Part shown: positions 12,935-32,000 of the stretch, in pieces
Position numbering within the stretch: the first letter of the stretch is position 1
How the letters are laid out: every line of letters starts with the position of its first letter
DNA from: Methanopyrus kandleri AV19
GTDB lineage: Archaea > JAADCQ01 > Methanopyri > Methanopyrales > Methanopyraceae
Direction: 5' to 3'
NCBI RefSeq assembly: GCF_000007185.1
Contig: NC_003551.1
Span: 1,230,001 to 1,262,000 of the forward strand
DNA: 32,000 bases
Position numbers and translations under genes: made by a program
The notes under the pieces: model-generated
What the model was told of the DNA's origin: nothing
The model's input: the letters and a program-made list of their open reading frames with translations, nothing else
The model's database searches: none

Positions 12935-13182
12935 ATGAACAGCCCCCGTTACTTGGGGGGAGGGGGAGGTCCTTTACTATACAAGTTTCTACTCCGATCT
13001 GGTAAGTGGTCGTTGTACCCGGAAACGTGCGGTCCTCTCCCCACGGTTGTCCTCGGAGCGAAATCCTTCCTCGCTTTCCCTTGAACTTGTTAATTGCACT
13101 GTGTGCACCGTGAGCGTGGGGTTCTACCGGTACCACGCCGTGATATTCGAAGAGAGAAGGCCCGGAGCTGGCGAGGGAAGCT

Positions 13183-13557: not shown

Positions 13558-14471
13558 ATTTGATTTTTCATCCATTTTAACTCGCCATCTTTTCGCTCGA
13601 TCCAACTATTCTCAACGGCAAAATTGATAATTTCTTGTAGTTCCTTCTCATTTACTTTGCGCTTATCTAATGCCTTCTTTTTAATCTCATTTTCTGGAAC
13701 ACAGCCAGCTTTTCGTATTTCTGATAATATCCATTTCATGTCTGTAAGTATCCCAGGGATATGTGCACTTACGTCTATAGCTAAACTTACAATACTTCTA
13801 TCAAATTTTTCTACGACTTCTATAGCTTTATCTACATCATTCTTAGAATACCATAACTCGCCCTTTTCAATGTTATCAGAATACTTATCATAATACGCAT
13901 CTTCCATTTTCTCTAGTATATTACAATATTTTTTGATAAATTTACTTATTTCATCAGCCAACTCACTTAATCTACAATTATTAGAATATTCTTCATCGCA
14001 TAATTTCTCAGCTATCCCATCTATATCTTTAAGCGTCTTCTTTAAATGATCAAGTATGTCAATTACATTATGACTCTTATATACACACCTTCTTACCTTT
14101 TTAGCATCATTTGGATTCAGTATTACGTAGTAACCTTCTTTTCCTTTTTTCCATATTCCGATAAGCCACATTAAACGCTCTGCAATGTACTTCGCCATCA
14201 GCTCTAGTGATTGGTTAAGTAATGCCACTAAAATCGTATTTATATCACCTTGTTTAATATTCTCATCGGTCTTAATAAACGCTTCCACTAAGATCTTAGT
14301 CTCTATATCATTTTGACTTACCTTAACATCTTTGTGGATACCAATCTCTTTATGGATGTAATCCCTGCACTCCTTGTTTTCCCGATAGCACTTTACCGCA
14401 GCTAGTAACCATTTCGCCCTCCAGTATATCGGTTCCGCAGGCTCCCTAAACACGATCACGTACTTCCCCAC
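13554..14471 (-). CDS. Hypothetical protein encoded by strongly AT-rich (foreign-looking) DNA
   Basis: 305-aa uninterrupted ORF in AT-rich DNA, where stop codons are frequent, so it is very likely real. GTG start at 14469-14471. It is K/I/E/N-rich and helical (e.g. DKAIEVVEKFDRSIVSLAIDVSAHIPGILTDMKWILSEIRK). Line 13981-14040 counts 20/60 G+C against 42/60 for line 14701-14760. No family recognised. Confidence 0.8.
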   Translation of the reverse strand: MGKYVIVFREPAEPIYWRAKWLLAAVKCYRENKECRDYIHKEIGIHKDVKVSQNDIETKILVEAFIKTDENIKQGDINTILVALLNQSLELMAKYIAERLMWLIGIWKKGKEGYYVILNPNDAKKVRRCVYKSHNVIDILDHLKKTLKDIDGIAEKLCDEEYSNNCRLSELADEISKFIKKYCNILEKMEDAYYDKYSDNIEKGELWYSKNDVDKAIEVVEKFDRSIVSLAIDVSAHIPGILTDMKWILSEIRKAGCVPENEIKKKALDKRKVNEKELQEIINFAVENSWIERKDGELKWMKNQI

Positions 14472-14602
14472 GGGCTGAGGTACCGCTCCCGCAACGTTTA
14501 GAAGAGTTACTAAATAAACATTGTGGAGCGAGGTGTTTTTTCTCGGCTGCGCTGGGGATCCAACGACTGGCGCACAACTCCCCGTACAGTCACCACCGGG
14601 GT

Positions 14603-18527: not shown

Positions 18528-18592
18528 GCGCCCTCCCCTCCGACTCCCTTTTTACGTAGCGTCCAATCCACAACTTACCTCGGGGTTAAGTC
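18528..18592. promoter_or_regulatory. 65-bp divergent promoter region between the methyltransferase and the DUF499 ATPase
   Basis: The two genes start back-to-back (GTG 18527 on the minus strand, TTG 18593 on the plus strand). The spacer contains the only A/T-rich stretch available for TATA function (CCCTTTTTACGTAGC). Confidence 0.5.
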
Positions 18593-20761
18593 TTGAGCGG
18601 CGGGGACCTCCCCTCGGTCTTCGACGTCTTCGAGCCGACGGAGCACGCGATCAACAGGAACAAGAACGTCCTGAGCGTGGAACTATCACACGTGGAACGG
18701 GAGGGTACCCCCGAGTCCGACCCCGAGAAGTTCCTGGCGCTGACCGTCCCGACCGAGGGGCTAGTGAACACCGTCGTGAGCGCGTTGAAACGCGTGGCCG
18801 GACTGGAAGGAGGCGAGCCCGTCCAGTACATGACGGAACGCTACGGCGGCGGCAAAACCCACGTCCTCGTCACCCTCTACCACCTGGCGACGAGCGAGAG
18901 GGCTAGGGAACTCCTCCTGGAGAGGGCCCGAGGTTACGTGGACGAGCGGCGACTGGAGGAGTTGGAGGAAGTCCTGTCGGCCCTCGAGGGGAAGGACGTG
19001 CGGGTCGTCGTGTTGGACGGCGATTCCGTGAGCGAGCCCAGGTGGTGGGTGGAACTGGCCGAACGGGTCGACCCGGAGCTCGCGGAGGAGTGGCGTTCTC
19101 GGGACATGACCCCCTCGAAGGGCGACGTCGAGGAGCTCCTGGATCGCGCGCTGGACGGGGTGGACGGCGTTCTCCTGTTGTTGGACGAGGTGACTGGAAT
19201 GTTGATCCGGTCGGGCGAGGAGATGGACCGTGGTCTCGAGTTCTTGAAGATCCTGGCGAGGGTGGTGGGTAAGGCGGACGCTCCCGTGGCGATGGTGGTC
19301 TCGGCGCCGAAGGGTAGTGGCGAGGTACAGCGGCAGTTGGAACGGTTGAAGGAGGAGGGCGAGGTCGAGTCCGAGGCGGTGTTGCGCGAGGAGGTGCACG
19401 ACGTCGGGGAGGAGGCGGTCGAGCAGCTGGACCGCGTGGGAGAGGAGAGGATCCCCGTGAGCGACGTGGAAGAGGCCGCGGAGATCGCCAAGGTATGGCT
19501 CCTACGCCCGAGGGAGGACGTCGACGTGGAGGAGGCGCGGGAAGCGGTCGTCGAGGCGTACGAGGAGTTGACCTCCGAGCTCGCGGGCACGGAAGGCATC
19601 CCGCGAGACGAAGCGGCGAACGCGGTGAGGCGGTTGCGCGAGACGTACCCGTTCCACCCCAGGCTCTTGGAAGTCCTGAGGAGCGTCACGAGGGAGGAGC
19701 CCTACCAGCTGACGCGTAGCTACCTGGAGATCCTCATGCAGGTCGTCGGGTACGCGTTCGATAGGTGGAAGGAGGGCGAGTGGGAGGCTCCGGTGTTCGA
19801 CCTCGGGGACGTGTTCCTGGACGAGACGGAGGTCGAGGAGGCCGTGGTGAAGCCCGAGGGTTGGGAGGAGCCGGCGGGCGACCTCAGGGAGAAGCTGGAC
19901 GACCTGGTGGAGAAGGAGGGCGAGTTGGCGCGCCGCCTCGCGTACGCCCTGTTCGTGCGCAGTCTCGTCCCGGACTCCAGGAAGAGAGGTGCGACGCCGA
20001 AGGACCTCCTGTTGGACGTGGCCAGGCCCGGGGAGGGCGTGGAACTGTCCGACGTGGAGAGGGCGCTCGAACCCATGGAGGACACGCTCTTCTACCTGCA
20101 CAGGGAGGGGGAGCGGTACTACTTCGACAGGACCATGAACGTCTCTTCCGTGATCCAGTCCTACATGCCGAGGGAGGAGCGGGTCGGTTGGAACCGGGCC
20201 AGGGAGGAACTGGAGAGGGAGCTGAGGAGTATCGGGGGCCTGGGACGGGACGCGCTGGTCCTGTGGGAGGACGAGGAGGAACTGTTGAACAAGCTTCGAG
20301 AACCCAAGCCACGCGTCGTCGTACTACCACCGTGGGAGGGTGAGGAGCGGGCCGAGGAGCTCTGGGAGAAGGCCGAGATGGAGAACGCCCCAGTCTTCCT
20401 GGTCTTCCAGGACAAAGGGCGCGAGAGGCGGCTCCTGAACGCCGCCCTGAGGTTATCGGCCGTCGAGAGGGCGCTGAGGTCCGACGACAAGCTCGCCCGG
20501 GAGCACGGGAAGGAGCTCAGGAGGAAGGAGGAGGAGTACCGGAACAGGGTGCGGAAGCTCCTCCGCGAGGGTTACACGATCCTGCGGTACCCTTCCGAGG
20601 GCGGGTTGGCGAGGGAGATGTTCAGTGTCGAGGAGGGGAGGAGTCTGGGGAGTGCTCTCGGGGAGAAGTTGGAGGAGATCGGGTTCCTCGAGCCGGGTGA
20701 AGAACCCGGGGATGTTCGTGTCGGAGGGGTTGGTGGAGAAGCGCGTGGAGATGATGCCTAA
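18593..20761 (+). CDS. P-loop ATPase of the DUF499 (BrxC/PglY-like) family, N-terminal two thirds
   Basis: 722 aa. DPEKFLALTVPTEGL, then Walker A MTERYGGGKTHVLVTLYHLA, Walker B GVLLLLDEV, and ETYPFHPRLLEVL, which I recognise as typical of DUF499-type ATPases. Divergent from the methyltransferase. Confidence 0.8.
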   Translation: MSGGDLPSVFDVFEPTEHAINRNKNVLSVELSHVEREGTPESDPEKFLALTVPTEGLVNTVVSALKRVAGLEGGEPVQYMTERYGGGKTHVLVTLYHLATSERARELLLERARGYVDERRLEELEEVLSALEGKDVRVVVLDGDSVSEPRWWVELAERVDPELAEEWRSRDMTPSKGDVEELLDRALDGVDGVLLLLDEVTGMLIRSGEEMDRGLEFLKILARVVGKADAPVAMVVSAPKGSGEVQRQLERLKEEGEVESEAVLREEVHDVGEEAVEQLDRVGEERIPVSDVEEAAEIAKVWLLRPREDVDVEEAREAVVEAYEELTSELAGTEGIPRDEAANAVRRLRETYPFHPRLLEVLRSVTREEPYQLTRSYLEILMQVVGYAFDRWKEGEWEAPVFDLGDVFLDETEVEEAVVKPEGWEEPAGDLREKLDDLVEKEGELARRLAYALFVRSLVPDSRKRGATPKDLLLDVARPGEGVELSDVERALEPMEDTLFYLHREGERYYFDRTMNVSSVIQSYMPREERVGWNRAREELERELRSIGGLGRDALVLWEDEEELLNKLREPKPRVVVLPPWEGEERAEELWEKAEMENAPVFLVFQDKGRERRLLNAALRLSAVERALRSDDKLAREHGKELRRKEEEYRNRVRKLLREGYTILRYPSEGGLAREMFSVEEGRSLGSALGEKLEEIGFLEPGEEPGDVRVGGVGGEARGDDA

Positions 20762-22061
20762 GGAGGTCCTGAAGAACGCGTACTCCAAGCCCGGGTGCCC
20801 GTGGTGTCGGGAAGAGGACGTGATCGCGATGATCGTCAAGGGGTGCGAGGAGGGCTTCTTCGTGGTGGACACGGGTAAGGCACGGTTCTTCCTGAGGCGA
20901 CCGAAGGGCGTGGACTCCAAGGCGAGGTTCGGGCATCCGACGGTACTGCACCCTCCGGTGGGATGGACGGCGGACTTCATGGGGGCTGACGAGACCGTCA
21001 AGGACTTCCTGGACGACGTGATGAAAAGGTTGGAGGAACCGAGGAACACGAACTGGAGCGAGGAGGAGAGGTGGCTCTCGGACGACGAACTGCTCGAGTT
21101 GGTGAGAGAGGACCTCCCTCAGGGGTTGGATAGGGCCGGGTTGGTGCTCCGGCATCAGGACGAGGGAGGGATCGTCGGGCCCGGGGATCTGGAGGAGGAC
21201 AAGGATCTCCTGGAGGCCGTCCTGGAGGAGCCGAACGCTTGGGTCTTCGAGGAGTTGAAGGTGACGAGGCTGGTGTCGGACGAGGTGCGTCGGGAGGGTA
21301 GTATCGCGAGGAGGGAACTGGTCCGGCGGTTGTCGCAGAGGTTCGGGCTGGAGGAGAGTCGGGTGAACGGTGCCATCAGCCGGTTGGTGCAAGACGGTGA
21401 GTTGGAGGAGGACGGTGGGATCGTGAGCGTGCCGTCCGAGGCGGAGGTGACTGTGGACGACGTCGTGGGCGTTGTGGAGAAGAAGGGTGAGGCCACGCTG
21501 GACGTGCTCGCGAGCAGGCTCGGGGTTAACCCGGCGTTCGTGGAGCCCGCGGTCGTGGAGGGTGTGAAACGCGGTCGCCTGGTCGTGTACCGCGGTGATC
21601 GACCGTTACGGGACCTGGAGTCGGTGAGTGAGGGTGTGCGGGTCGGACTGCCGGAGGAGCGGGTCGAGGTCGGGTACGCGGGAGATCCGGTGGATTTCGC
21701 GAGGGAGGTCGCGGACGCGGTGTTGATCGTGGGAGGGCGTGCTCGGGTGCAGCTCGAACTGGAGAGTGTGAAGGGCCTGGACTACGTCGATACCGAGTAC
21801 CTGGCCAGGTTTGAGGAGGTCCGGGTGAGGATCGAGGTGGAGGGTGGCGTGCTGGAAGGTGAGAAGAAGGGGGTCAGTCCGCGGAACGACGGGTGGTGGA
21901 TCGCGGTCAGGCTGGCCGCGGGCCAAGCGAGCGGCGCGGAACTCCACCTCACCGGCCGATTCGACCGGGACTCACTGACCGACTTCGAAGAATCCGTCAG
22001 AGAGCTCGCGGATGCCCTGGACCCTGAAGAAGCGCATGCCGTAGTGGAGAAGGTCGATTGA
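20712..22061 (+). CDS. C-terminal module of the DUF499 ATPase as a separate or overlapping ORF (wHTH-like repeats); start ambiguous
   Basis: In-frame ATGs lie at 20712 (MFVSEGLVEK), 20751 and 20754 (MMPKEVLKN), all overlapping the end of the upstream ORF (stop 20759-20761). The translation is protein-like with two wHTH-looking segments (IARRELVRRLSQRFGLEESRVNGAISRLVQDGELEE; ATLDVLASRLGVNPAFVEPAVVEGVKRGRLVVY). Confidence 0.7.
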   Translation: MFVSEGLVEKRVEMMPKEVLKNAYSKPGCPWCREEDVIAMIVKGCEEGFFVVDTGKARFFLRRPKGVDSKARFGHPTVLHPPVGWTADFMGADETVKDFLDDVMKRLEEPRNTNWSEEERWLSDDELLELVREDLPQGLDRAGLVLRHQDEGGIVGPGDLEEDKDLLEAVLEEPNAWVFEELKVTRLVSDEVRREGSIARRELVRRLSQRFGLEESRVNGAISRLVQDGELEEDGGIVSVPSEAEVTVDDVVGVVEKKGEATLDVLASRLGVNPAFVEPAVVEGVKRGRLVVYRGDRPLRDLESVSEGVRVGLPEERVEVGYAGDPVDFAREVADAVLIVGGRARVQLELESVKGLDYVDTEYLARFEEVRVRIEVEGGVLEGEKKGVSPRNDGWWIAVRLAAGQASGAELHLTGRFDRDSLTDFEESVRELADALDPEEAHAVVEKVD

Positions 22062-22504
22062 GACGGTGAGCGAGGACTACGGGTCGGAACTACCATCCTC
22101 TTCGTCACCATCTCTACTTATCCTGAAGCTTACGGATTCCCTGACCGATTAATCCAAGTGCTAGACCTTCTAGTTAACCACTCTCAAGCCTTTATTCATA
22201 AGTATAAGTATATGAACTATCTCTGTCATTTTGATTCAAGTCAGAACAAGCGGTAATAGAGTTATCTTCCCCACATTCACTTCAGTTTTCTCACCTAAGT
22301 TCAACATCTTCATGTAGGTGATCAATATCTCCTTAACTGTTACAACTTCGCCATTTAGGGTTAACATAAAGCTTCTTTCGTACCTACTTAGCCAACATTA
22401 TTTCTTAGAAATAGGCAGAATATGGAAGGTTCAAAATATAACAGTTTCATACCATTAATCTTTATATATGACACATATGATACTCTTAGATGGGGTGAAT
22501 ATCC

Positions 22505-22828
22505 ATGTTCATTCTCGAATTTGGGGTTGAATATAGCTTAGGATCACCGACTATTCGATATGTATGCAGAGTCTACTACTCACCAACATTCAGCATCCAA
22601 CCTACATTCCAATTCGCGACAGAGTACTTTAGTAATACTTCGTTACTGCACCTTTTACTGACTATAGAAACTATCTCAAAACTTAGCAGTATCGAAAGTA
22701 AACTATACCACATCGAAAGTAAACTAAGCTTCCGGAATACTTTACTACAGAATGTAATCTCGAACTGGCTTTCACCGATACTGCCACCAATTCCCGAAGT
22801 GATCAAGATACTACTAGGTAGTTGGTGA
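22505..22828 (+). CDS. Questionable 107-aa hydrophobic ORF inside the AT-rich spacer
   Basis: A 107-codon open frame in ~30-35% G+C DNA is unlikely by chance. However, the antisense frame (22576-22854) is also open, and the ORF contains the 15-bp direct repeats (IESKL x2). No RBS or family recognised. Confidence 0.3.
   Translation: MFILEFGVEYSLGSPTIRYVCRVYYSPTFSIQPTFQFATEYFSNTSLLHLLLTIETISKLSSIESKLYHIESKLSFRNTLLQNVISNWLSPILPPIPEVIKILLGSW
22691..22726. repeat. Two perfect 15-bp direct repeats, 21-bp period
   Basis: ATCGAAAGTAAACTA occurs at 22691-22705 and again at 22712-22726. Confidence 0.9.
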
Positions 22829-23094
22829 TCACACGGTGTCAAACTTCCATCCACTACCGTCTTTTATGAGTCCAGGGACGTAGTCCCACCCGGACTAGTT
22901 TTTCACTCACTTCCCTCTTTCTCCTCACCTCACGGTCCGATATCTCAGGTGCTAGCGGTAGGGAGTGGAGAAATTGAACATCAGCTTCCGGCCCATGTTG
23001 GGCAGTTCCGGCTGTAAGATTTCCGTCCGATTAGTACGTAGAACACGTTCGAATACGTTCCACTTAGGATAGACACAACGCCCTCAATGGATGG

Positions 23095-23589
23095 GTGGAG
23101 TTTGGCATCAAGGTAACTACGCCGCCCGTCCCACCCCCGGAGTCCGACGGGAGGGCCGAGACCCTCGAGGAGGGTAACTGGTCGTACGAGACGCGCACGT
23201 ACTACGTCCGCCTCCGGGACGACCGACTGGGAACCGAGGTGGGGAAGGGCTCCGCCGAGTACGCCGTGCACGCGCTCACCCACGCCCTCAGGGTCACCGA
23301 GGGTTACCCGCCCGCCCACGTCCGGCACGCCGTCGACGAGGAATCGATCTTCCTCTACGAGCTACCGGCGGCTGTCCTCCCCCACCTGGACTGGGAGTCC
23401 GCGGTCCGGGAGGCCGAGCGCACGCGCCTGGAGCCCGAGCGGCTCCGGCTCCCGACCTGTCCGTGGCCGAGGGGCTCACCGAGGGTCTCCCGACCCCTCG
23501 TCCGCCGCTACCTTCGGCGGTTGCTAGACCTCCTAAAGCGACTCTCCCTGCACGTGCATGGCGCGGTTACCGAACCCTCAAAGCACTAA
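23095..23589 (+). CDS. Hypothetical protein
   Basis: 164-aa ORF, GTG start. Protein-like N-terminal two thirds (NWSYETRTYYVRLRDDRLGTEVGKGSAEYAVHALTHALRVTEGYPPAHVRHAVDEESIFLYELP). The tail is basic. It is the first GC-rich gene after the AT-rich spacer. Confidence 0.5.
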   Translation: MEFGIKVTTPPVPPPESDGRAETLEEGNWSYETRTYYVRLRDDRLGTEVGKGSAEYAVHALTHALRVTEGYPPAHVRHAVDEESIFLYELPAAVLPHLDWESAVREAERTRLEPERLRLPTCPWPRGSPRVSRPLVRRYLRRLLDLLKRLSLHVHGAVTEPSKH

Positions 23590-23701
23590 CAGCCAACACA
23601 ACAGACCTAAGCTATTGCTAAACCACCAAACTATCCCACTAAGTTGCGCCCGTGTGATAATTCATCAGATTTGACAACCTAAAGGAAATTCTCGAAATTT
23701 C

Positions 23702-23731
23702 TAGCAACCCTACCGAAAGTTGCTAATATAT
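23702..23731 (+). promoter_or_regulatory. Palindromic operator overlapping the BRE/TATA of the wHTH gene
   Basis: Perfect inverted repeat TAGCAAC (23702-23708) / GTTGCTA (23719-23725) with a 10-nt spacer. The right arm runs into TAATATAT (23724-23731), about 30 nt before ATG 23762. Related half-sites are ATTGCTAAA (23614-23622) and AAGTTGCGCC (23641-23650). Confidence 0.55.
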
Positions 23732-23761
23732 CTCCCTCCTTTAGTAGGAAGAGGGCTGAGA

Positions 23762-24154
23762 ATGCTCGAGGAACGCGAGCTTGAGGAGCTTGCTAAAGCT
23801 CTGAAACGGGGAGAACTGGACAAAACCGGCGCCGTGCTCGGCTTGCTCTATCTAGCGTACGTTGAGACAGGCGGACATGGAGGCATGACAGCTGACGATG
23901 TAGTACGAGTTTTACAGGAATCAGGATACGACATAACTAAAGAGAGATTCTACTCGCTCGCCTCCCAGTTGATGAAGAAAGGCTACATAGAATCTCACAA
24001 AATCAATGGACGTAGGGTTATCTACACGATCAACAGCGACAGTGAGTACGAGGTGGAACAGAAACTACGCGAGAGACTCGAGAAATCCGCCCCGACGGCT
24101 GAGCGTGTAAGCGCAGAGGAGATGCGGAGAATACTGGATAGGCACTCGACTTGA
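23762..24154 (+). CDS. Small winged-helix DNA-binding protein (PadR/MarR-like fold)
   Basis: 130 aa from ATG 23762; the track start TTG 23720 lies inside the TATA box and is unlikely. MTADDVVRVLQESGYDITKERFYSLASQLMKKGYIESHKINGRRVIYTI gives a helix-turn-helix plus beta-wing pattern. Confidence 0.7.
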   Translation: MLEERELEELAKALKRGELDKTGAVLGLLYLAYVETGGHGGMTADDVVRVLQESGYDITKERFYSLASQLMKKGYIESHKINGRRVIYTINSDSEYEVEQKLRERLEKSAPTAERVSAEEMRRILDRHST

Positions 24155-24243
24155 GGGAAAGCGCGGCCCCGTGTGGGACGGTGGTTTAATTTTCTCGGCC
24201 CTCATGGTACCAATTAGGAGAAGTTGTTGGGGATTGTCTTGTT

Positions 24244-25155
24244 TTGGCTAAGGTCAGTAAGGTGTTCGTGGTCGGGTTCACGGCCAGGAAGGGAGGTACC
24301 GGGAAGACGACCTGCTCGTTCAACGTAGGGTTCGAGTTCGCCAGGAGGAGGAAGTGGAAGGGTGTGAAGAGCCATCCGGTGTTCTTCGTGGACGTCGATC
24401 CGCAGGCGATCGGTAAGGAGTCGGAGCGGGCGGCCACTACGCTTACCGACCTCTTCAGGATCGGGCCTTTCGACCTAACACCCCTCAAACTAGAGGGCGA
24501 CAGGATGGTCGAGGCCAGACGCGTCACGAAGGAGACCGTCGAGAGGACCGGTGGTTTCGAGTTGTTCCACGTGAAATACTCGCCGGATCCCGAGGAGTTC
24601 GACAATGCAGATCCTATGTGCTCGGTTCACGATAAGGTGTTCCTAGCTCACCTCAGCACGCACATCTCGGAGTCGCCGGGTATGATGGATTTCGGGAAGT
24701 TCCTGAACGCCATCACGGGGGCCGGGTTCGACGGTATCGTCGTCCTCGACACCCCTCCGCTGAACGTCAGGACGACCTTCGTCCTCAACGCGCTGGAACA
24801 CTGTGATTTAGTGGTTCCAGTCCTGAACCCGGAGTCCTACGATCAGATCCCCGACTTCATCAGGCGACACCCTGTGCGGTTCATCGTGCTCAACCAGATG
24901 CTGAAGGGTAGGACGAAGGAGGCGGAGAAGATCCGCAGGGAGATCGAGGGTTACCTCAAGAGGACGACGTTGGACGAGGACGACGTCATCTGGATCCCTA
25001 GCAACGACCAGCTCCGCTCGTGCACGAACACCGGGGTTCCGGCTAGGTGTAGGAACCCCAAGCCCCAGGCCGTCACGCCCAAGTTCCATCACATAGCCTG
25101 GAGGATTGAAGTGGAGCGGGAGCGGCGGAGCAAGATCAGCGAGATCAGGCTCTGA
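24244..25155 (+). CDS. ParA/MinD/Soj-family P-loop ATPase
   Basis: Deviant Walker A FTARKGGTGKTTCSF, DVDPQ, Walker B GIVVLDTPP. TTG 24244 or GTG 24262 is the start. Confidence 0.9.
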   Translation: MAKVSKVFVVGFTARKGGTGKTTCSFNVGFEFARRRKWKGVKSHPVFFVDVDPQAIGKESERAATTLTDLFRIGPFDLTPLKLEGDRMVEARRVTKETVERTGGFELFHVKYSPDPEEFDNADPMCSVHDKVFLAHLSTHISESPGMMDFGKFLNAITGAGFDGIVVLDTPPLNVRTTFVLNALEHCDLVVPVLNPESYDQIPDFIRRHPVRFIVLNQMLKGRTKEAEKIRREIEGYLKRTTLDEDDVIWIPSNDQLRSCTNTGVPARCRNPKPQAVTPKFHHIAWRIEVERERRSKISEIRL

Positions 25156-25169
25156 GCGGGGGAGCGCCG

Positions 25170-25841
25170 GTGTTCGAGCTGGCCGTCAAGGCCTTCGGTC
25201 TCCCGGATTCGACCGTGACCCACGCCAAGCGCGGCCTCCAGATCATGGACGACCGGGCTTCGAGGGGCCGGAAGCCGGTCACGAGGGGCGACTACGGTAA
25301 GGTGACGAGGGGGGTCGCCAGGCTCGTCAGGCACGCCCACACGACGCTGGTGGTACCGGGTCTCGACGTCGTCACGAAGTGGGCTAAGCGCTACGGGAAA
25401 AGGCCCTGGAAGATCGTCCGTAACGTCCTCGAGGACGGTGGCGGGCTCCTCGACGAGACCCCCCTGAGGTTCGAGGACCTGCCGCCGGGCGCCGCCCCGA
25501 TCGCGGCCGTGGTCAGGACGGGGAACGCCCGGAAGGTCGTCGAGGAGGCGTTCCTGACGGAATACCCGCTGTTCGCGGCGATGATGTGCGCGGTGCTCGA
25601 GGACGCGGCTCGGACAATGCTCGAGCGGTTCTCGGAGGAGGAGGTCGAGACTTACGGGGAGTTCTGTCGGAAGCACCCGGGGAGGCACGGTTCCAGCTTC
25701 CTGATCGGGGTAGCCCTCTGGGGCTGGCTCGAGGAGAGGACGGGGGAGACTATCGACGTCGACGAGACCCTCAGGAGCATCGAGAAACTCGCCAGGGACC
25801 CGGTGGAGGAGGCCGTGAACGGGATCCTAGACGTCGGCTGA
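25170..25841 (+). CDS. Hypothetical protein downstream of ParA (candidate partition adaptor)
   Basis: 223-aa ORF. GTG start 14 nt after the ParA stop, preceded by GGGGGAG. The translation is protein-like (VVTKWAKRYGKRPWKIVRNVLEDGGGLLDETPLRFEDL; FLIGVALWGWLEERTGETIDVDETLRSIEKLARDPVEEAV). No family recognised. Confidence 0.65.
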   Translation: MFELAVKAFGLPDSTVTHAKRGLQIMDDRASRGRKPVTRGDYGKVTRGVARLVRHAHTTLVVPGLDVVTKWAKRYGKRPWKIVRNVLEDGGGLLDETPLRFEDLPPGAAPIAAVVRTGNARKVVEEAFLTEYPLFAAMMCAVLEDAARTMLERFSEEEVETYGEFCRKHPGRHGSSFLIGVALWGWLEERTGETIDVDETLRSIEKLARDPVEEAVNGILDVG

Positions 25842-25897
25842 TACCCGCCGAGGCAGTGACTAGAGGATCTCTCGGAGAGTTTAACGGACTGGGGGCG

Positions 25898-27057
25898 GTG
25901 CCGGTGGATGCTGAGCACTGGGAAGTCCCGATTGTGCCGAAACCCGAGTTCCGGGAGGCACTGCAACGGTACATGATCTCCCGACTCGAGGAGGTCGGCG
26001 TTGGCCCCAAAACCGTCGAACAAATTGTAAACCTTAATATCGAGAAGGTGGAGCCATGGAATGACATCAAATCAAAGATAACTTATGAAATCCAATATAA
26101 TTTGAAGCATTGCTGTTGCATGGTAGAGGACTTAAAAAAAGATTTGAAACGTATCTACGGAGAGTTGAGGCTTGAGGACCTCTGCTCGTTCGGTGACGCT
26201 GCCCTGTGGTTACTCGGCGTCCGTAGAGCGGTGGTCGAGTTCATCCACGACCTCCTTCTCGAGCGACCGGACCTCACTAAGGCTGTTGACCTCTGGTTGG
26301 TCGGAAGGATGCTCGATGCGGGCGAACTCAAGGCGGCTACGGAGCTCCTGGAACTGAACGGGTACGAGGTTCCTCCGTCCCCAACTCGAGTACCAGAGCT
26401 AAAAACTACCGAAAGAGTCCATAGGCTGGGTCACGTAATGACTGAAACGATACTCACGGCCCACGCGCTCTCGAACAGGGTCGATAGCAGCTCCTTCGAC
26501 GAAGCCGTTGGAAAGGTCAGGAACTGGTTCAAGGAGGCCCAGTCATCGCTGAGGAATGAAGTTCAGAAGGAGGATAGCTCGGAGCTAGTGGTGAAATTTA
26601 TCGAAGGGTTGCGCGACACGCTGGAGGATCTTATCAGAAAGACGTTAGAGCACGGTAAACCCGAGCTTGAGGAGGTCAACTCTACTTTCGAGCTGTTGGG
26701 TATCGACGATCTAGGTTCGTTTTTCAGCCGGGCGTGTGGTGAGTTCAAACGGGCGGTGGATTACCTCGTCGAGGTGGTCGAGTTCGACCCCGGACGAATG
26801 GCGAAGAACTTACTCCGAGCGAGTCCGGAGATAGAACTCGGGGATCGGACGCTGGAACCGGAAGTGTACGATCCGAGGTGGAGCATCTTCGAGCGAGACC
26901 TGAGCGAGCTCGACAGGATTACGAAGGAGATGATCGAAGAGCTGGTCACCGAGACCGATCGGTCTTCCTCCGAGCGCGAAGCCCCCCCGACCCACTGTCC
27001 GAGGTCGTGGACTCCGTCGTCAAGGAGGCGCTTGACAAACGCCGAGGGAACTCTTGA
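25898..27057 (+). pseudogene. Paralog 1 of the novel triplicated family, frameshifted at a C7 run
   Basis: Homologous to 28311-29615 and 29840-31165. Matching segments: VPIVPKPEFREALQRYMISRLEEVGV vs VPLSPTEEFYDRVKSYVERRMSDLGL; VDLWLVGRMLDAG vs VNLWIAGAALASQ; ILTAHALSNRV vs CLTAHAMVNRG; EIELGDRTLEPEVYDP vs EIRLGDKIIPPEEYDP. After the C7 run at 26982-26988 the running frame becomes P/S/R-rich junk. The frame reached by adding one C reads DPLSEVVDSVVKEALDKRRGNS* (stop 27055-27057), matching the family C-terminus. Start GTG 25898 or 25904. Confidence 0.65.
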
Positions 27058-27182
27058 ACCCAGTCCTACCCCCTATCGCTCGATGACTCCTAGGATCTCT
27101 CCCAGCGATCCTGTCGGAAAAAGGTCCCCGCTAGAACCGCGCCCGAACTCCCCGACGGCCGCGCATGCCTTAGTGGGTACCC

Positions 27183-28277
27183 TTGATACTGTTCTCGTTC
27201 CGACGACTTTACGCCCGGGATCGCGACCGAGCGCCACGTCTCACGGGGCGGTGGGCGTTGAGGGTACTCCCGGCCGACGAGCTGGAGGAGTGGCTGTCGG
27301 AACGACTGGAAAGCTTCGTGGGCGAGGTCGGCGAGTACTCGATCGTGCTCGCGTGCGCGTTCTCCAGGCGCGTGGGGAGCGGGTTGCCCGCGAGCGACCT
27401 CGTGACGGCCATCCGGGAGCTAGACCCCGGCCCGTGCCGGGTCATGCTGCTGTGGGGCGCCGGTACCACCGAGGTGGCGGACCCGCTGGAGGCCGTGCGG
27501 GCCGCGGAGGACCTGCGCGGTTGCGGCGATGAGGCCTGGATCGGCGTGCACCCGACGCGACCCTTCCACGGTAAGTTCCTCCGCGTGCTCCCGGAGGGTG
27601 AGGGCCCGGAGCTCTCGATCGCCTTCAGCTGGAACCTCTCGCGGACGGCGGCGGACGCGGGTTCACTCGAGAGCGTGCTCGAGCGAAGGGAGGAGCGCGG
27701 TGAAACGTTCGAAGAGTTCGTGGGCAGGCTACGCGAGGACGGCTGGCTCGTGGGCCGGTTACGCCGTGAGGGTGGGAAGTCCCGCGTCGTCCTCGAGGAC
27801 GTGCGGAAGTTCAGGTTCCCCTGCTCGGGCCCCCGGGAGGTGCGGGTGCGTGGACGGGTGGGCGTGCTCTCGGGAACGGTGAGCGTCACGGAGCTGGTCC
27901 TGGACGACGGGTCGCGGGAGGTGACGTTGGTCCTGGATAGGGGGCTCCGCGAGTCCTTCGAGGACGTCGAGTCGGTGGTGACGGAGGTCGTAGAGGGGGA
28001 GTTCCGGCGGGTCGTGCAGGACGGGGAACTGGAGAGCGACGTGGTGCGGTACGGGATCGTCCGCGCGGTGCGGGACGTCGTGGAGGAACTCGTCGAGCGG
28101 GGTGAGGCGGAGTACGAGGTCGCCGTGCGGGCGGAGGAGACGGTGAACGGCGACGAGGCGGGTGTGCTCGCGGACGAGTGGAGGTTCCCGAACGCGAAGG
28201 CGGCCCTACGCTCGCTCGTCCGGGAGATCCTCCGGACACGGTTGCGCGAGGTGTTGGAGGAGTTAGTTGAAAGTTAA
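27183..28277 (+). CDS. PLD/HKD-like nuclease-fold protein with acidic C-terminal extension
   Basis: 364-aa ORF. The start is uncertain (TTG 27183, or the TTG giving MRVLPADELEEWL). It has alternating beta-strand pattern (YSIVLACAF, RVMLLWG) and an HKD-like motif, VHPTRPFHGKFLRVLPEGEGPELSIAFSWNLSRTA (H-x-K ... S-x-N with an insertion). The antisense 226-aa ORF is S/R/P junk. Confidence 0.6.
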   Translation: MILFSFRRLYARDRDRAPRLTGRWALRVLPADELEEWLSERLESFVGEVGEYSIVLACAFSRRVGSGLPASDLVTAIRELDPGPCRVMLLWGAGTTEVADPLEAVRAAEDLRGCGDEAWIGVHPTRPFHGKFLRVLPEGEGPELSIAFSWNLSRTAADAGSLESVLERREERGETFEEFVGRLREDGWLVGRLRREGGKSRVVLEDVRKFRFPCSGPREVRVRGRVGVLSGTVSVTELVLDDGSREVTLVLDRGLRESFEDVESVVTEVVEGEFRRVVQDGELESDVVRYGIVRAVRDVVEELVERGEAEYEVAVRAEETVNGDEAGVLADEWRFPNAKAALRSLVREILRTRLREVLEELVES

Positions 28278-28421
28278 TTTAGGACAGATGTTATCTCATC
28301 AGGAGGTTCCGTGTCGCCAGGGGGCGTTCCAGTGCCCGAGCGCGTCCCATTGAGCCCGACCGAAGAGTTCTATGACAGGGTGAAATCGTACGTGGAACGC
28401 CGAATGTCGGACCTCGGCTTA
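28273..28421 (+). repeat. Duplicated leader plus 5' coding block of paralog 2 (copy 1 of 2)
   Basis: 149 bp collinear and ungapped with 29781-29929: GTTAATTTAG...CAGGAGGTTCCGT...CAGGGGGCGTTCCAGTGCC.GAG.GCGTCCC..TGAGCCCGACCGA...ATGTCGGACCTCGGCTTA. It includes a TATA-like TTAATTTA and AGGAGGT. Confidence 0.85.
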
Positions 28422-29615
28422 GAACCTCCGGAGGATAATGAGAGTCTTCTCTACGATGAGAAGTATGGTCATTTCTGGACGTTCAACGGATTTGGTCGAG
28501 AATTGTGGAGTGATTTAAGTGCAGTATGGATATTAATCGTATTACCTTCGAATGGTCTTCTTTCAGAAAACATATTCGAACTTGAGGAACAACCGTCGAC
28601 GGGTAAGGTATTAAGGGACGAAGTAGAAAGAGTTGGAAGGGGATTGCTAGAGCGGGAGTCTAAGCGTCATTTTAGTGATTACTTTTTGGGAGAACTAGAA
28701 GTCTTCAAGGAAGCCTCACAGCATGTCAAACGCTTCGTACTAGATGAGCCGAACTTTGAGGTTGCGGTTAACCTCTGGATCGCCGGAGCTGCTCTTGCGT
28801 CTCAAGATGGTACCCCAAGAATCGCCATCCAGGCTATCAGTTCGATAGACACCGAAGTTTCTGAGTTTCCAGTTGGGGTTCCTTCGTACCCTCTTGGTTA
28901 TATCCTCCAAGGTTGTGGCATAACGGCTTCCGTACTCTGCCTGACTGCTCACGCGATGGTTAACCGTGGAGTAGAAGAAGATCAGTTACTTGAATATCTA
29001 AGTGATACGCCCTATGGTGAGAAAGTTCGGATTATATGCGCATCATGGGTTGAGGGAACGTACAAAGAGGTGATTAAAGAATGCCTAGAAGGTTTGAAAG
29101 ATGGACTTAATAGATTACTGAGGAAAGGACGAGGTTTAAACATGAGGGATCTAGGGATAGACGACCCTGAGGAGTTCGCTCATGAAGTTTTGAGAAAACT
29201 TGCTGATGTAATAGCTAACATCTCCGCCGTCTTCGAAACTGTTCACAGAGAACCTGAGAGGATCGTTCATACCCTTCTCTCGGTCGATGAAGAGATACGA
29301 CTCGGAGATAAGATCATCCCACCTGAGGAATATGATCCAAATGGAACAAATATGTATCGGTTGGAGAAGACCTTCGAGAGTATCGATGCTGAGAAATTTG
29401 TAGAAGATGCTATGAAAACAGTCGGTAAGCTCGTAGGCGGGTCAAAGGGTGAAGATGTAGCCGAAACCGCGACCAAACTGGCGACAGAAGCGGTAAAACA
29501 GGGGTTGAACATAATATCCGAGTCGGGTGGGGATCGTAAGGGGAGGAGCACACTAGGGGAGCTCATCGAATCCGTCGTTAAGGAGGTCATGGGTGACGAC
29601 CGGAAGAGAAAGTAA
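28311..29615 (+). CDS. Paralog 2 of the novel triplicated family (434 aa)
   Basis: Long ORF through AT-rich DNA. GTG 28311 is the first start; GTG 28332 (MPERVPLSPTEEFYD) corresponds to the paralog 3 start. The C-terminus GGSKGEDVAETATKLATEAVKQGLNIISESGGDRKGRSTLGELIESVVKEVMGDDRKRK is conserved in paralog 3. No known family recognised. Confidence 0.85.
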   Translation: MSPGGVPVPERVPLSPTEEFYDRVKSYVERRMSDLGLEPPEDNESLLYDEKYGHFWTFNGFGRELWSDLSAVWILIVLPSNGLLSENIFELEEQPSTGKVLRDEVERVGRGLLERESKRHFSDYFLGELEVFKEASQHVKRFVLDEPNFEVAVNLWIAGAALASQDGTPRIAIQAISSIDTEVSEFPVGVPSYPLGYILQGCGITASVLCLTAHAMVNRGVEEDQLLEYLSDTPYGEKVRIICASWVEGTYKEVIKECLEGLKDGLNRLLRKGRGLNMRDLGIDDPEEFAHEVLRKLADVIANISAVFETVHREPERIVHTLLSVDEEIRLGDKIIPPEEYDPNGTNMYRLEKTFESIDAEKFVEDAMKTVGKLVGGSKGEDVAETATKLATEAVKQGLNIISESGGDRKGRSTLGELIESVVKEVMGDDRKRK

Positions 29616-29780
29616 GTGGTCATTCTTTGCCTTCTCAATGATTAAGTGTCCTCGTACCGTTCTCTACCGATCGCCGATACTCCGAAATCCCTACTCTACC
29701 GTCAGGAAAGCCCTCCGAACGGACGTTCCATCGACTAAAAGGAGTATCTCAACTGTGTGAAGCACTGTAAGGTTGGTTAA

Positions 29781-29929
29781 GTTAATTTAGAGCGGACGTT
29801 GTCTCACCAGGAGGTTCCGTACCGTCAGGGGGCGTTCCAGTGCCTGAGTGCGTCCCGCTGAGCCCGACCGATAGGTTCTACGACAAGGTGAAATCCTACG
29901 TGAGACACCGGATGTCGGACCTCGGCTTA
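29781..29929 (+). repeat. Duplicated leader plus 5' coding block of paralog 3 (copy 2 of 2)
   Basis: See 28273-28421. Same length and block order, offset 1508 bp. Confidence 0.85.
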
Positions 29930-31165
29930 AGGATTGGAGATGCCGCTCTTTACGATACAAAGTACGGTCCCCTTTCACCACTTCCCATTTTCATGGATGG
30001 ATGGTGGCGTGGATCATGGATTCGAGAGCGTAGATTATGGGATGGAAAGCTGGACAAGCCATGGCTATTAACCGTGTCAGTCCTAGCCGAACTTTTCGAT
30101 TCTAATCCTGAAGAAATTGCTGGCATTCCCTCAATTGAAATTGAACCAGGAGCATCAAAATTGGGATATATGCTAAGGAAAATGATAAAGACTGGAGAGG
30201 AGTCGTTAAAAGAGAAACGGGAGTATGGACACCTAAGCGACTATATTCTGTGGGCACTGGAAGTAATTGAGGTGATCACTCGAAGAATCAGGGATCTCGT
30301 ACTGGACAAGCCAAGCCTTGAGACCGCCCTGAACTTTTGGGTCATTGGAGCTGTTCTTAGCTCTCGAAACGTTTCAAAAGTTACTGTCATTAGCGATTCA
30401 GTGGATCTTGAAATACCGAAGTCTTCTGTCGAGATTCCGTTACCTTATGGCATTAACATTCAAGGTAGTAGCTCAATAACTTCCACGCTCTATGTAATTG
30501 CTCACGCGATGGTACATCGTGGGATAGATGAAGACCAGCTGTTAGAACACTTTAATATACAAACAGTGTGCGCGTTATGGATCGAGGAGAATATGCATAA
30601 AAAGATGATTAAGAAAGGACTAGAGGAATTAAAACACGGTTTTGAAAAGTTACTAAAGAAGTCGAAGTGGGAGCTGGAACTCGAAGACTTAGGGATCGAT
30701 GACCCCGAAGCGTTCTTCCACGAAGTCTCGAAAAAACTCGCCGAGATTGTGACCAACGTTTCAACCGCTTTTGAAACTATTCAAGATAAGCCCGAAGAGA
30801 TCGCCCGGAACCTGCTCTCGGTCGACGAGGAGATCCGACTCGGGGACGAGGTCATCCCGCCCGAAGAGTACGATCCCAAGTGGAGACAATCACAACGCGT
30901 GAAACAACACGTAAAAGGCACTCTGGAAAGCATCGACACCGAGAAACTCGCGGAAGATGCGTTGAAGACGGTAGGAAGGCTCGTAGGCGGGTCGAAGGGC
31001 GAGGAGATGGCCGAGACCGCGGCCAAGCTGGCGACGGAGGTAGTAAAACGAGGGTTGGACATGGTGTCCGAGTCAAGTGGGAATCGTAAGGAGAGGAGTG
31101 TGCTAGGGGAACTCATCGAGGCGGTCGTCAAGGAGGTCATGGACGGCGCTCGGAAGAGGAAGTAG
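29840..31165 (+). CDS. Paralog 3 of the novel triplicated family (441 aa)
   Basis: GTG 29840 is the first start after the in-frame stop at 29783-29785. MPECVPLSPTDRFYDKVKSYVRHRMSDLGL; LNFWVIGAVLSS; YVIAHAMVHRGIDEDQLLEHF; LLSVDEEIRLGDEVIPPEEYDP; C-terminus GGSKGEEMAETAAKLATEVVKRGLDMVSESSGNRKERSVLGELIEAVVKEVMDGARKRK. Confidence 0.85.
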   Translation: MPECVPLSPTDRFYDKVKSYVRHRMSDLGLRIGDAALYDTKYGPLSPLPIFMDGWWRGSWIRERRLWDGKLDKPWLLTVSVLAELFDSNPEEIAGIPSIEIEPGASKLGYMLRKMIKTGEESLKEKREYGHLSDYILWALEVIEVITRRIRDLVLDKPSLETALNFWVIGAVLSSRNVSKVTVISDSVDLEIPKSSVEIPLPYGINIQGSSSITSTLYVIAHAMVHRGIDEDQLLEHFNIQTVCALWIEENMHKKMIKKGLEELKHGFEKLLKKSKWELELEDLGIDDPEAFFHEVSKKLAEIVTNVSTAFETIQDKPEEIARNLLSVDEEIRLGDEVIPPEEYDPKWRQSQRVKQHVKGTLESIDTEKLAEDALKTVGRLVGGSKGEEMAETAAKLATEVVKRGLDMVSESSGNRKERSVLGELIEAVVKEVMDGARKRK

Positions 31166-31322: not shown

Positions 31323-31349
31323 GAATCGTTAATATTTCTGTAACGATTC
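31323..31349. repeat. Perfect 9-bp inverted repeat (hairpin) in an AT-rich patch
   Basis: GAATCGTTA (31323-31331), atatttctg, TAACGATTC (31341-31349). Confidence 0.85.
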
Positions 31350-31535
31350 TGAGTTGAGCTGCTGGAGAACCCCTCCGAACCCGTGATATTCCACACTAAG
31401 ATAGCGAGCTCATACTACTAATGGTTTTCGGGAACCACCGACCGCCGAAACCCCGGGGATCCCGACTTTACCCCGGAGAAAGCCGATCGGACGGGCGCTT
31501 CGTAGGGTAGGAAACCCTAAAGTTTCCGTAATAAC

Positions 31536-32000
31536 TCAACCGGTATCGTCACGACGCCACCGGACCGCGCGCCGTCCGATCGGTACGGGGATCGCCGGCA
31601 GAACGTGTCGCGACCCACGCCCCGACGACCCCTCGGACTCCCCGGTCTCCCCGCGTGTCCCCTCGACCTCGGAACCACTCGACCCGCCCGCGGGGAACTC
31701 CTCCAGCGTCCACTCCCCGAAACCGGGGTACTCCCGACGCACCGGCTTCAGCAGGTGACGGACACCGTCCCGGTCCTCGACGATCAGCCCCTCCGACGTC
31801 GGGTCACCGAGCGGTACTCCCGGGACTCCCGCACGGAACGCCCGTCGGAGAGGACCACGACGAACCCGTCGTCGAACCGGAAGACGGCCACGAACCAACC
31901 GTCCGACAGGTCCCGGCGGTACACCGGCTCCCCCGATCGCTCGGACGGGAGGACGTACGCGCGGCCGGTCCCCGGGTCGAGGACGACCGACCCCGCGACG
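31536..32000 (-). pseudogene. 3' end of a paralog of the 1137-aa secreted protein, frameshifted; continues beyond the window
   Basis: One minus-strand frame, open from the window edge, reads ...GEPVYRRDLSDGWFVAVFRFDDGFVVVLSDGRSVRESREYRSVTRRRRG* (stop 31784-31786). A second frame continues with DPTSEGLIVEDRDGVRHLLKPVRREYPGFGEWTLEEF...LPAIPVPIGRRAVRWRRDDTG* (stop at 31536). Joined, they parallel the end of 7166-10579: LRRLDGGWFLAVFDIDGEYLVVLSDGKKVVDRRLYDSVEPRPDGTLVARTPAGEEVVLRVERTGDGWTLTEG...RRIPVPVPPVPVRRRRSA. A single-nt indel near 31800-31815 separates the frames. Confidence 0.7.

Follow-up and report, generated by a model that had tools for sequence, protein, structure and literature searches.

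MK1261–MK1267 of Methanopyrus kandleri AV19: a divergent ParA cassette and a PLD-like gene with an MK-37 array as candidate modules of a putative defense island

Gene content and composition of the MK1261–MK1267 block

We analyzed a 32,000-nucleotide (nt) stretch of the Methanopyrus kandleri AV19 chromosome (NC_003551.1, positions 1,230,001 to 1,262,000; hereafter the window, in which all coordinates are counted from its first nucleotide). Seven co-directional, closely spaced genes on its + strand encode a winged helix-turn-helix (wHTH) protein, a ParA-type ATPase, a protein of 223 amino acids (aa) termed p223, a phospholipase D (PLD)-like protein, and three members of the MK-37 family. Compared across loci, these seven genes are not one unit and appear to form two independent modules, wHTH–ParA–p223 and PLD with MK-37. 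Exact look-up returned the AV19 accessions AAM02474–AAM02480, and the genes correspond to MK1261–MK1267 because the AAM02478 record bears the name MK1265. Paralogs 2 and 3 were 100% identical to NCBI M. kandleri proteins encoded on a 1,694,969-bp chromosome.

The genes and the family names MK-29 and MK-37 are already public in the AV19 annotation, which labels p223 as 'MK-29 family', ParA as 'ATPase involved in chromosome partitioning', paralogs 2 and 3 as 'Uncharacterized protein specific for M. kandleri, MK-37 family', and the wHTH protein as 'Fe2+/Zn2+ uptake regulator' or as a member of the BlaI/MecI/CopY family. Searches by locus tag and topic found no literature on MK1261–MK1267, and the linkage of PLD to MK-37, the dynamics of the MK-37 array, and the separability of both from ParA appear to be undescribed so far.

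An initial annotation, made from the sequence alone, had described the seven co-directional genes as a single plasmid-like block, with a palindrome at a TATA-like box, a ParA, a PLD-like protein, and three paralogs. All of these features were recovered in our analysis. Its gene calls were correct overall, with three amendments: paralog 1 is frameshifted, the PLD gene starts at 27258, and a helicase remnant precedes the block. The genes and associated features are as follows.

23762–24154, + strand: wHTH regulator (MK1261), 130 aa, BlaI/MecI/CopY- or Fur-like winged helix
24244–25155, + strand: ParA (MK1262), 303 aa, predicted divergent ParA/Soj-type P-loop ATPase
25170–25841, + strand: p223 (MK1263, 'MK-29 family'), 223 aa, no family match
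25904–27057, + strand: MK-37 paralog 1, frameshifted here, intact form 384 aa
27258–28277, + strand: PLD-like protein (MK1265), 339 aa, single HKD-like motif
28311/28332–29615, + strand: MK-37 paralog 2 (MK1266), GC 47%
29840–31165, + strand: MK-37 paralog 3 (MK1267), GC 49%
28271–28331, + strand: MK-37 promoter/leader unit, in which the TATA-like GTTAATTTAG overlaps the PLD stop codon; repeated at 29779–29839
23702–23725, no strand: candidate operator TAGCAAC-N10-GTTGCTA, a perfect inverted repeat
31325–31574, no strand: ~250-nt conserved non-coding sequence 3' of the MK-37 array, with the palindrome GAATCGTTA-N9-TAACGATTC (9 bp, perfect) at 31323–31349
23095–23589, + strand: p164 helicase remnant, the last ~27% of a DEAD/DEAH helicase gene
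22100–23090, no strand: AT-rich non-coding filler, 39% GC, with a 21-nt repeat in 2.5 copies (22679–22729)

Composition across the block was not uniform and formed a mosaic by gene. The GC content at third codon positions (GC3) was 0.83–0.91 for p164, ParA, p223 (0.91), and PLD (0.89), the same as in the flanking host genes; it was 0.57 for the wHTH gene and 0.67, 0.46, and 0.55 for MK-37 paralogs 1, 2, and 3, respectively.

Recurrence of the genes at other Methanopyrus loci

The same genes were found at a series of loci on other Methanopyrus contigs (numbered with the prefix L), including L001 (Logan ERR9765777) and L018 from another M. kandleri strain. A PLD gene directly followed by one to three MK-37 genes occurred at four loci beyond the window: a 336-aa gene, PLD, and MK-37 stand in this order in L003, PLD precedes three tandem MK-37 genes in L004, two of them split, and PLD is directly followed by MK-37 in L011 and L012. 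L018 retains a 3' remnant of the PLD gene, followed by one MK-37 gene. The PLD gene follows a DUF1678 gene in L017, and in L002 it stands in the order CARF, nucleotidyltransferase, PLD, and a 650-aa gene, adjoining a type III csm operon. ParA and p223 were absent from every other readable PLD/MK-37 locus (L002, L003, L004, L011, L012, L017, and L018).

The wHTH–ParA–p223 order (45%, 57%, and 49% identity) recurred by itself in one other lineage, on the short contigs L009, L010, and L020. These contigs stop directly after p223, so that linkage to MK-37 is not readable there; by eye, the C-terminus of the same helicase as p164 precedes the wHTH gene in L009. A further ParA, 42% identical, was located in L005–L007 between genes for 49-aa and 218-aa proteins, adjoining CobN. 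The orthologs of the genes flanking ParA in L005 overlap each other by 4 nt in L002. Since L005–L007 carry ParA and the flanking genes overlap without it in L002, ParA near CobN represents a presence/absence difference. Comparison of L005 (9845–11507) with L002 (3025–3854) showed ParA between the 49/53-aa and 218/223-aa genes in the former and its clean absence from the latter. Methanopyrus chromosomes thus differ in whether they carry a very divergent ParA cassette.

Because the modules recur separately, ParA is not a conserved part of a system comprising ParA, the MK-37 family, and PLD, and the contig fragments already suggest that the modules vary independently among strains. The single fused block of the initial annotation was accordingly not upheld, since PLD with MK-37 and wHTH–ParA–p223 recur apart. 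The search for the same gene order elsewhere, which that annotation had proposed, returned PLD/MK-37 loci without ParA, and viral and phage collections held no relatives of ParA or p223.

Within the PLD/MK-37 loci, the two partners differed in conservation. PLD was 72–81% identical among genomes whose neighboring MK-37 proteins were only 24–41% identical, and in L003, L004, L011, and L012 the GC content of the PLD genes was 64–72% versus 46–62% for the adjacent MK-37 genes. A second recurring neighbor pair of PLD/MK-37 was located at L003 8349–10004, L004 5860–7494, and L011 2325–4127; it consists of a 336–466-aa protein and a divergently transcribed 111–149-aa protein, showed no family match, and is absent from the window.

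MK-37 genes also occurred in other settings. On the contig of L002, L013 (3149–8431) encodes a 669-aa DEAD helicase, a 442-aa P-loop protein, a 250-aa unknown protein, and MK-37, directly 5' of type III cas10–csm; this operon may be a distinct helicase-based system using MK-37. Its MK-37 gene is located 168 nt 5' of cas10 on the same strand, and the MK-37 gene of L019 lies ~2.5 kb from cas10. The most divergent member of the family (P0018, 358 aa, 10 Cys) is encoded at L015 10001–11077 between Translin and RsmB-like genes on a 193-kb contig and may be an ancestral cellular version of MK-37.

Predicted properties of the proteins and turnover of the MK-37 array

All homologs of the PLD-like protein align from 27258, and therefore TTG at 27258, not 27183, is taken as its true start. 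The invariant residues in six homologs were GxHPTRPFHGKFL...FSWNxSxTAAD, corresponding to H104-x-K106...S124-x-N126. In our own comparison with the canonical motif HxK(x)4D(x)6G(S/T)xN, the Asp was absent and the H-to-S spacing was 20 rather than 15, equivalent to a five-residue longer loop. The AlphaFold2 model (predicted local distance difference test score [pLDDT] 75, predicted TM-score 0.74) was compared with the PDB using Foldseek, and the six best matches all belonged to the PLD superfamily, including Streptomyces PLD, SauUSI, and NgoAVII R (probability 0.97–1.0, E 2e-3 to 9e-3, ~145 columns; probability 0.99–1.0 and E ~2e-3 for the top matches). Polyphosphate kinase (PPK) and Tdp1, both of the PLD superfamily, came next in the list. 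An N-terminal PLD domain of ~145 aa is followed by ~180 beta-rich/helical residues without family assignment. Homologs were found only in Methanopyrus or close metagenome-assembled genomes (MAGs), and a scan of a genome collection with the PLD alignment added one further locus.

Single-HKD PLD nucleases (Nuc, BfiI, NgoAVII R, the SauUSI domain, and DrmC) share with this protein the ~145-aa N-terminal PLD fold, the H-x-K...S-x-N residues, and a defense setting, and the size (339 aa) of the PLD-like protein resembles that of NgoAVII R and BfiI, as may its two-domain layout. Unlike these nucleases, it lacks the motif Asp, has the longer H-to-S spacing, gave no Pfam PLD match and no match in PADLOC, including to DrmC, and is partnered with MK-37 instead of a methylase, N-protein, or DrmA/B helicase; a profile search against PDB sequences also gave nothing relevant. 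DISARM differs on further counts: none of the best 25 of the 71 PADLOC matches of the L013 helicase was DrmA or DrmB, and the PLD-like gene does not travel with a methylase. MK1265 is most likely a homodimeric phosphodiesterase or nuclease.

Paralogy of the three MK-37 genes was confirmed, with 51% and 26% identity to paralog 2, and paralog 1 matched the MK-37 family profile with an E-value of 2.5e-135. When 1.84 billion cluster representatives were searched exhaustively with the family profile, 13 MK-37 proteins emerged, and every named one belonged to Methanopyrus kandleri, Methanopyrus sp., or a euryarchaeal MAG. The proteins are soluble, acidic (pI 4.5–5.6), and 380–460 aa in length, and all end in an amphipathic helix with an oligo-basic tail (RKRK). 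Conservation was concentrated in an N-terminal helix (30% mean pairwise identity), an AHAxxNRG helix (31%), an EIxLGDxxxPEEYDPxW hairpin (40%), and, as a fourth island, the C-terminal tail; identity fell to only 11–17% in the stretches that separate these islands.

The initial annotation had been unable to place the paralogs in any family, and profile, AlphaFold2, and Foldseek searches bore this out, with no match to a known family, housekeeping families included. No consistent Pfam match was obtained across ten MK-37 members, and PHROGs, NCBIfam, and PADLOC gave none. The AlphaFold2 model (pLDDT 71) was all-alpha except for one hairpin, and Foldseek searches against the PDB and the BFVD viral structures yielded no meaningful match (TM ~0.1–0.18, root mean square deviation >16 Å). 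The MK-37 profile matched only designed helical bundles among PDB sequences, which we dismissed as a composition artifact. The conserved H-x4-R motif was also weighed as a HEPN signature and dismissed, since in our reading of the alignment its order is the reverse of the HEPN order R-x4-6-H. The 650-aa (L002) and 407-aa (L004) neighbors of PLD were tested as divergent MK-37 members and likewise rejected.

The MK-37 genes bear several marks of turnover. The promoter and 5' ends of paralogs 2 and 3 form a direct repeat (D2) of 85% identity, their 3' ends are 77% identical, and their interiors have diverged; because the promoter/leader is part of the repeat, the duplication took in the promoter. 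Over its last ~130 aa, the MK-37 gene of L018 shared 90–100% identity with paralog 3, but only 23–63% before that point. Copies of the ~250-nt sequence flank the L018 cassette on both sides (L018 1–253 and ~1850–2100), and partial copies occur between paralogs 2 and 3 (spacer positions 29666–29739) and at L004 7940–8020. Given the flanking copies in L018 and the partial copy in the paralog 2–3 spacer, this sequence marks the tandem-duplication unit. It was also considered as a structured RNA and rejected (z-scores of only −2.1 and −1.6, no Rfam match).

Paralog 1 is frameshifted in AV19 at a run of seven C residues (26982–26988). L001, an independent assembly of 99.9% identity, has eight and encodes an intact 384-aa protein (P0003), which reads through to ...VVKEALDKRRGNS; its C-terminus, ...SVVKEALDKRRGNS, agrees with the family tail. 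A second single-base indel relative to L001, a G at ~27157, falls in the paralog 1–PLD spacer. Both indels may reflect either errors in the reference or phase variation at homopolymers. Frameshifted copies recur in L004 and L018: an MK-37 copy at L004 ~2300–2345 is split by a 10-bp tandem duplication in which AAATGATAAT occurs twice, and the L018 gene is called as two open reading frames (ORFs) of 234 and 179 aa. Pseudogenization, or assembly error, is recurrent in the family. As read from these alignments, the array appears to grow by tandem duplication, to be reshuffled by recombination, and to decay via frameshifts.

Such behavior recalls hypervariable partner arrays of conflict systems, for example the orphan immunity arrays of polymorphic toxins and the variable specificity subunit HsdS of type I restriction-modification, which likewise consist of tandem diverged paralogs beside a conserved enzyme gene, with mosaic genes (conserved ends and a variable interior), duplication, and pseudogenization. 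MK-37 has no sequence or fold relationship to these families.

The initial assignments of the wHTH, ParA, and PLD proteins hold, the first two through profile matches and motifs and the last through its invariant residues and superfamily fold matches. The wHTH protein matched Pfam Penicillinase_R (E 1.6e-4) with 22.4 bits, slightly under the 22.6-bit cut-off; it also matched the Pfam MCM_C wHTH and FUR models, as well as Fur in the PDB (E 0.007). It was 45% identical to the gene 5' of ParA in L009/L010 and 48% identical to a CobN-adjacent gene in L004 without a neighboring ParA.

The right arm of TAGCAAC-N10-GTTGCTA abuts the TATA-like TAATATAT (23724–23731), ~35 nt before the wHTH ATG. The palindrome was the sole match in the window even at ≤2 mismatches (0.06 expected; 6 of 100 shuffled sequences gave one). 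The half-site GTTGCTA occurs four times in the window versus 1.15 expected, three of them within 23520–23725, and the palindrome sits inside a second, 8-nt inverted repeat, CTAAAGGA/TCCTTTAG (23679/23737).

ParA-type ATPases are marked by a deviant Walker A motif, xKGGxGK[ST], with its signature lysine, an A' motif DxDPQ, and a Walker B motif hhhD-x-PP. MK1262 has the deviant Walker A RKGGTGKTT at residues 15–23, invariant in three homologs, and the A' motif FVDVDPQ and Walker B motif VVLDTPP, invariant in the homolog alignment. Pfam AAA_31 was matched with 28.9 bits (cut-off 27) over the N-terminal residues 9–55 only, CbiA with 21.1 bits (under the cut-off of 25.4), and the PHROG ParA-like profile with an E-value of 2.4e-8. 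A single-sequence search of the PDB gave no match, and a three-sequence profile gave weak matches to MinD and Soj. A search of 5.8 billion proteins yielded just two relatives, and a ParA scan of the genome collection found nothing. By these matches and motifs, MK1262 is classed as a very divergent ParA/Soj-type ATPase.

The GTG start of p223 lies 14 nt past the ParA stop codon, after a Shine-Dalgarno-like run GGGGGAG; where a coupled start had been proposed earlier, p223 lies near ParA without overlapping it. The protein shared 49–50% identity with the product of the gene that follows ParA in L009, L010, and L020, and a metagenome scan found one short contig. Pfam, PHROGs, NCBIfam, PADLOC, and the PDB gave no match, hence no ParB/Srx, ribbon-helix-helix, or other recognizable domain. 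Relationships of p223 to the 218-aa gene 3' of ParA in L005 and to the 250-aa protein of L013 were considered and rejected, with no relationship to the former and none detectable to the latter.

The cassette had been likened to the AspA–ParB–ParA system of pNOB8. Like this system, Sulfolobus SegAB, and ParF–ParG, it combines a small DNA-binding gene and a deviant-Walker-A ParA behind a promoter palindrome, and it has a tightly linked third gene as in type Ib/archaeal cassettes. It differs from them in that the order is wHTH–ParA–X, the locus is chromosomal without replicon genes, ParA scored 39 bits against the 180-bit cut-off of NCBIfam ParA_partition, far under it, and the genes on either side of the sister-lineage ParA (49 aa and 218 aa) are unrelated. 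No centromere-like repeat array was present in 23560–24260, which contains the single 7-N10-7 palindrome and scattered half-sites. The analogy is one of logic only: a ParB-like domain is missing from p223, and there is a single operator-like site. Without a centromere array, a replicon, or a ParB-like partner, the cassette does not qualify as a genuine partition locus.

Genomic setting and competing explanations

Genes at 15681–20761, 5' of the block, encode a DUF1156 methylase matching HmaB (E 3e-55) and a DUF499 ATPase matching HmaC (E 5e-28). The region 5' of the block also encodes a PIN protein, a protein with a metallo-beta-lactamase fold, and one of 478 aa that contains a wHTH. Within 15681–22061, the DUF1156 methylase (− strand), DUF499 ATPase, and 478-aa winged-helix protein resemble a Hma-like system. 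A helicase gene once stood at 23.1 kb, as in Hma/DUF1156–DUF499 systems; it differs from the helicase of those systems in being cut to its last ~27%, on which ground the Hma-like system looks degraded or incomplete, and the Hma-like genes do not travel with PLD/MK-37 in other genomes. The remnant p164 matched residues 501–649 of the 669-aa L013 helicase (E 5e-25, 38% identity), which contains DEAD and Helicase_C domains and is BrxHI/SngC/DpdF-like. The tblastn match of this helicase to the window covered residues 492–649 only, and the homology starts abruptly at 23089, with in-frame stops directly 5'. Because the 5' part of the helicase is missing and stops lie directly 5' of the homology, the 39% GC filler at 22.1–23.1 kb marks a deletion or insertion junction. 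Judged by these genes, the setting is a putative defense island with signs of decay.

We give roughly even weight to the reading that 23.1–31.6 kb is a Methanopyrus-specific, quickly rearranging, defense-type island composed of two independent modules and not one integrated replicon. In the first module, by analogy with the logic of known ParA systems, the wHTH protein would repress its own promoter through the palindrome abutting the TATA box, and p223 would be the tightly linked partner of the ParA ATPase, possibly an adaptor or stimulator. In the second, the conserved PLD enzyme would act as a constant effector, with one to three MK-37 genes behind it, each under its own promoter, encoding variable, target- or partner-specific components, which could be sensor, specificity, or inhibitor subunits. 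A conflict-system reading is suggested by the conserved enzyme with its variable neighbor, the mosaic recombination, and the defense context, which comprises the Hma-like genes and PIN gene 5' of the block, the truncated helicase, MK-37 beside type III cas10 (L013 and L019), and CARF two genes 5' of PLD (L002).

The stronger proposal, that PLD and the hypervariable MK-37 array constitute an unrecognized Methanopyrus-specific immune or conflict system on a fold without known relatives, is tentative, and we consider it doubtful. In such a system, the constant hairpin and basic C-terminal tail of MK-37 would dock the constant partner, and the variable helical segments would recognize fast-evolving invaders.

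Several observations weigh against the two-module defense reading and its parts. The gene 3' of PLD in L002 encodes the 650-aa protein unrelated to MK-37; MK-37 stands away from PLD in L013, as the last gene of an overlapping helicase/P-loop/250-aa/MK-37 operon; and the L015 gene is solitary among housekeeping genes, with host-like GC. The MK-37 genes each carry a TATA-like box of their own and a ~50–70-nt leader, and on this account may not be co-transcribed. Any physical or functional coupling of PLD with MK-37 is an inference from their linkage, their role in defense would be a putative one, and PADLOC gives no known defense family for PLD, MK-37, ParA, or p223. The fold match of PLD is borderline (E 2e-3), with TM-scores of ~0.25 when query-normalized and ~145 residues covered, and no Pfam PLD model (PLDc/PLDc_2) matches at E ≤0.1; as Pfam, PADLOC, and PDB-sequence profile matches are lacking, the protein is regarded as a remote member of the superfamily at the level of fold and motif. 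Finally, the palindrome is not shared by the homologous L009 promoter (by eye and by repeat search). Its uniqueness and the clustered half-sites make an operator function for the wHTH protein plausible, yet with the site missing from the L009 promoter this function is unproven.

The initial annotation had favored either a decaying integrated plasmid or virus or a novel system built on ParA, the paralogs, and PLD. According to the former, the whole block at 22.1–31.5 kb would be a decaying plasmid or provirus in which unknown proteins serve replication or structure and ParA–wHTH serves as a partition cassette. The low GC3 of the wHTH and three MK-37 genes (0.46–0.67) is atypical, the 39% GC filler sits where the 5' part of the helicase is missing and resembles an insertion scar, the wHTH–ParA layout with its operator-like palindrome is partition-like, and the frameshifted copies suggest decay. 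However, Pfam, PHROGs, NCBIfam, and PADLOC revealed no integrase, Rep, capsid, or packaging gene among the seven block proteins and their neighbors, in agreement with the initial annotation for the first three, and no origin-like features were found; the window contains no tRNA gene, att-like flanking direct repeat, or Rfam family. ParA and p223 had no relatives in viral contigs or the phage collection, ParA matched plasmids only marginally (bacterial RepA, 25–28% identity), and the MK-37 model had no match among predicted viral structures. Moreover, the GC3 of ParA, p223, and PLD is host-like, and the modules separate elsewhere, PLD with MK-37 being a long-standing chromosomal resident near CobN and cas loci. 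No Methanopyrus virus or plasmid turned up in any collection searched, and to our knowledge none has been described. We therefore consider the plasmid or provirus quite unlikely, and this tempting call is removed as unsupported.

The other alternative, one new system in which ParA, p223, MK-37, and PLD act together, a positioning ATPase being coupled to diversified sensors and a nuclease, draws on the co-directional, closely spaced arrangement in AV19, where paralog 1 directly follows p223, and on the parallel between helicase/P-loop NTPase/250-aa/MK-37 in L013 and helicase remnant/ParA/p223/MK-37 in AV19. It is the least probable of the explanations considered: ParA and p223 are missing from the seven other readable loci, p223 and the 250-aa protein are not detectably related, and the contigs carrying the cassette in the other lineage end before MK-37 could be read. 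What stood of that proposal is a diversified family next to a nuclease-type gene; ParA as its conserved part did not.

Bacterial conflict loci linked to secretion are known to carry tandem immunity arrays 3' of PLD-type effectors, and PLD/MK-37 could be a polymorphic-toxin-type locus in which PLD is the toxin and the tandem MK-37 proteins are cognate and orphan immunity proteins. The one to three diverged paralogs directly 3' of a PLD-family enzyme, the mosaic recombination, and the pseudogenes fit such a locus. We nevertheless consider it unlikely, as PLD has no signal peptide, recognizable secretion or delivery domain, or Pfam match, MK-37 is large for an immunity protein at 380–460 aa and is also found without PLD, and cognate immunity should co-vary with a toxin, in contrast to the conserved PLD and divergent MK-37 described above. 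A role of MK-37, and possibly of the PLD-like protein, as accessory components of Methanopyrus type III CRISPR-Cas would account for the MK-37 genes near cas10 in L013 and L019 and for the position of PLD in L002, after CARF (Cas_APE2256) and nucleotidyltransferase genes and by a csm operon. This appears very unlikely, since the 32-kb window has neither a cas gene nor a CRISPR array, the four loci with PLD followed by MK-37 have no cas genes within the available sequence, and no CARF, SAVED, or HEPN signature was recognized, the H-x4-R order being reversed relative to HEPN.

Lineage-specific unknown genes are common in defense islands, and many genus-specific 'MK-n' families of Methanopyrus have remained uncharacterized since genome annotation. 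Returning to the two-module island, MK-37 gains a testable hypothesis, namely that it is the variable component paired with a conserved phosphodiesterase during genetic conflict, because it is kept behind a PLD-type enzyme, undergoes duplication, recombination, and decay, and has restriction-modification-like and type III CRISPR neighbors. From these results, the vent communities would also harbor a hitherto unseen source of donor DNA with lower GC, and an MK-37 immune system, if real, would indirectly attest to a mobilome, so far unsampled, in an organism growing above 100 °C.

Other genes of the window were noted alongside the block. A 1137-aa protein is encoded at 7166–10579, and a homologue of 26–29% identity adjoins the CARF gene in L002. 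At 31536–32000 (− strand), a 223-aa gene that converges on paralog 3 extends beyond the end of the window; its counterpart at L018 2075–2746 resembles the C-terminal part of the 1137-aa protein, with a faint PQQ/beta-propeller match. An ORF of 305 aa and 34% GC is located at 13554–14471 (− strand), in an AT-rich patch (13000–14500) of the 61% GC window; its sole match was a faint one to a PHROG exonuclease (E 0.006), and this region is probably foreign DNA.

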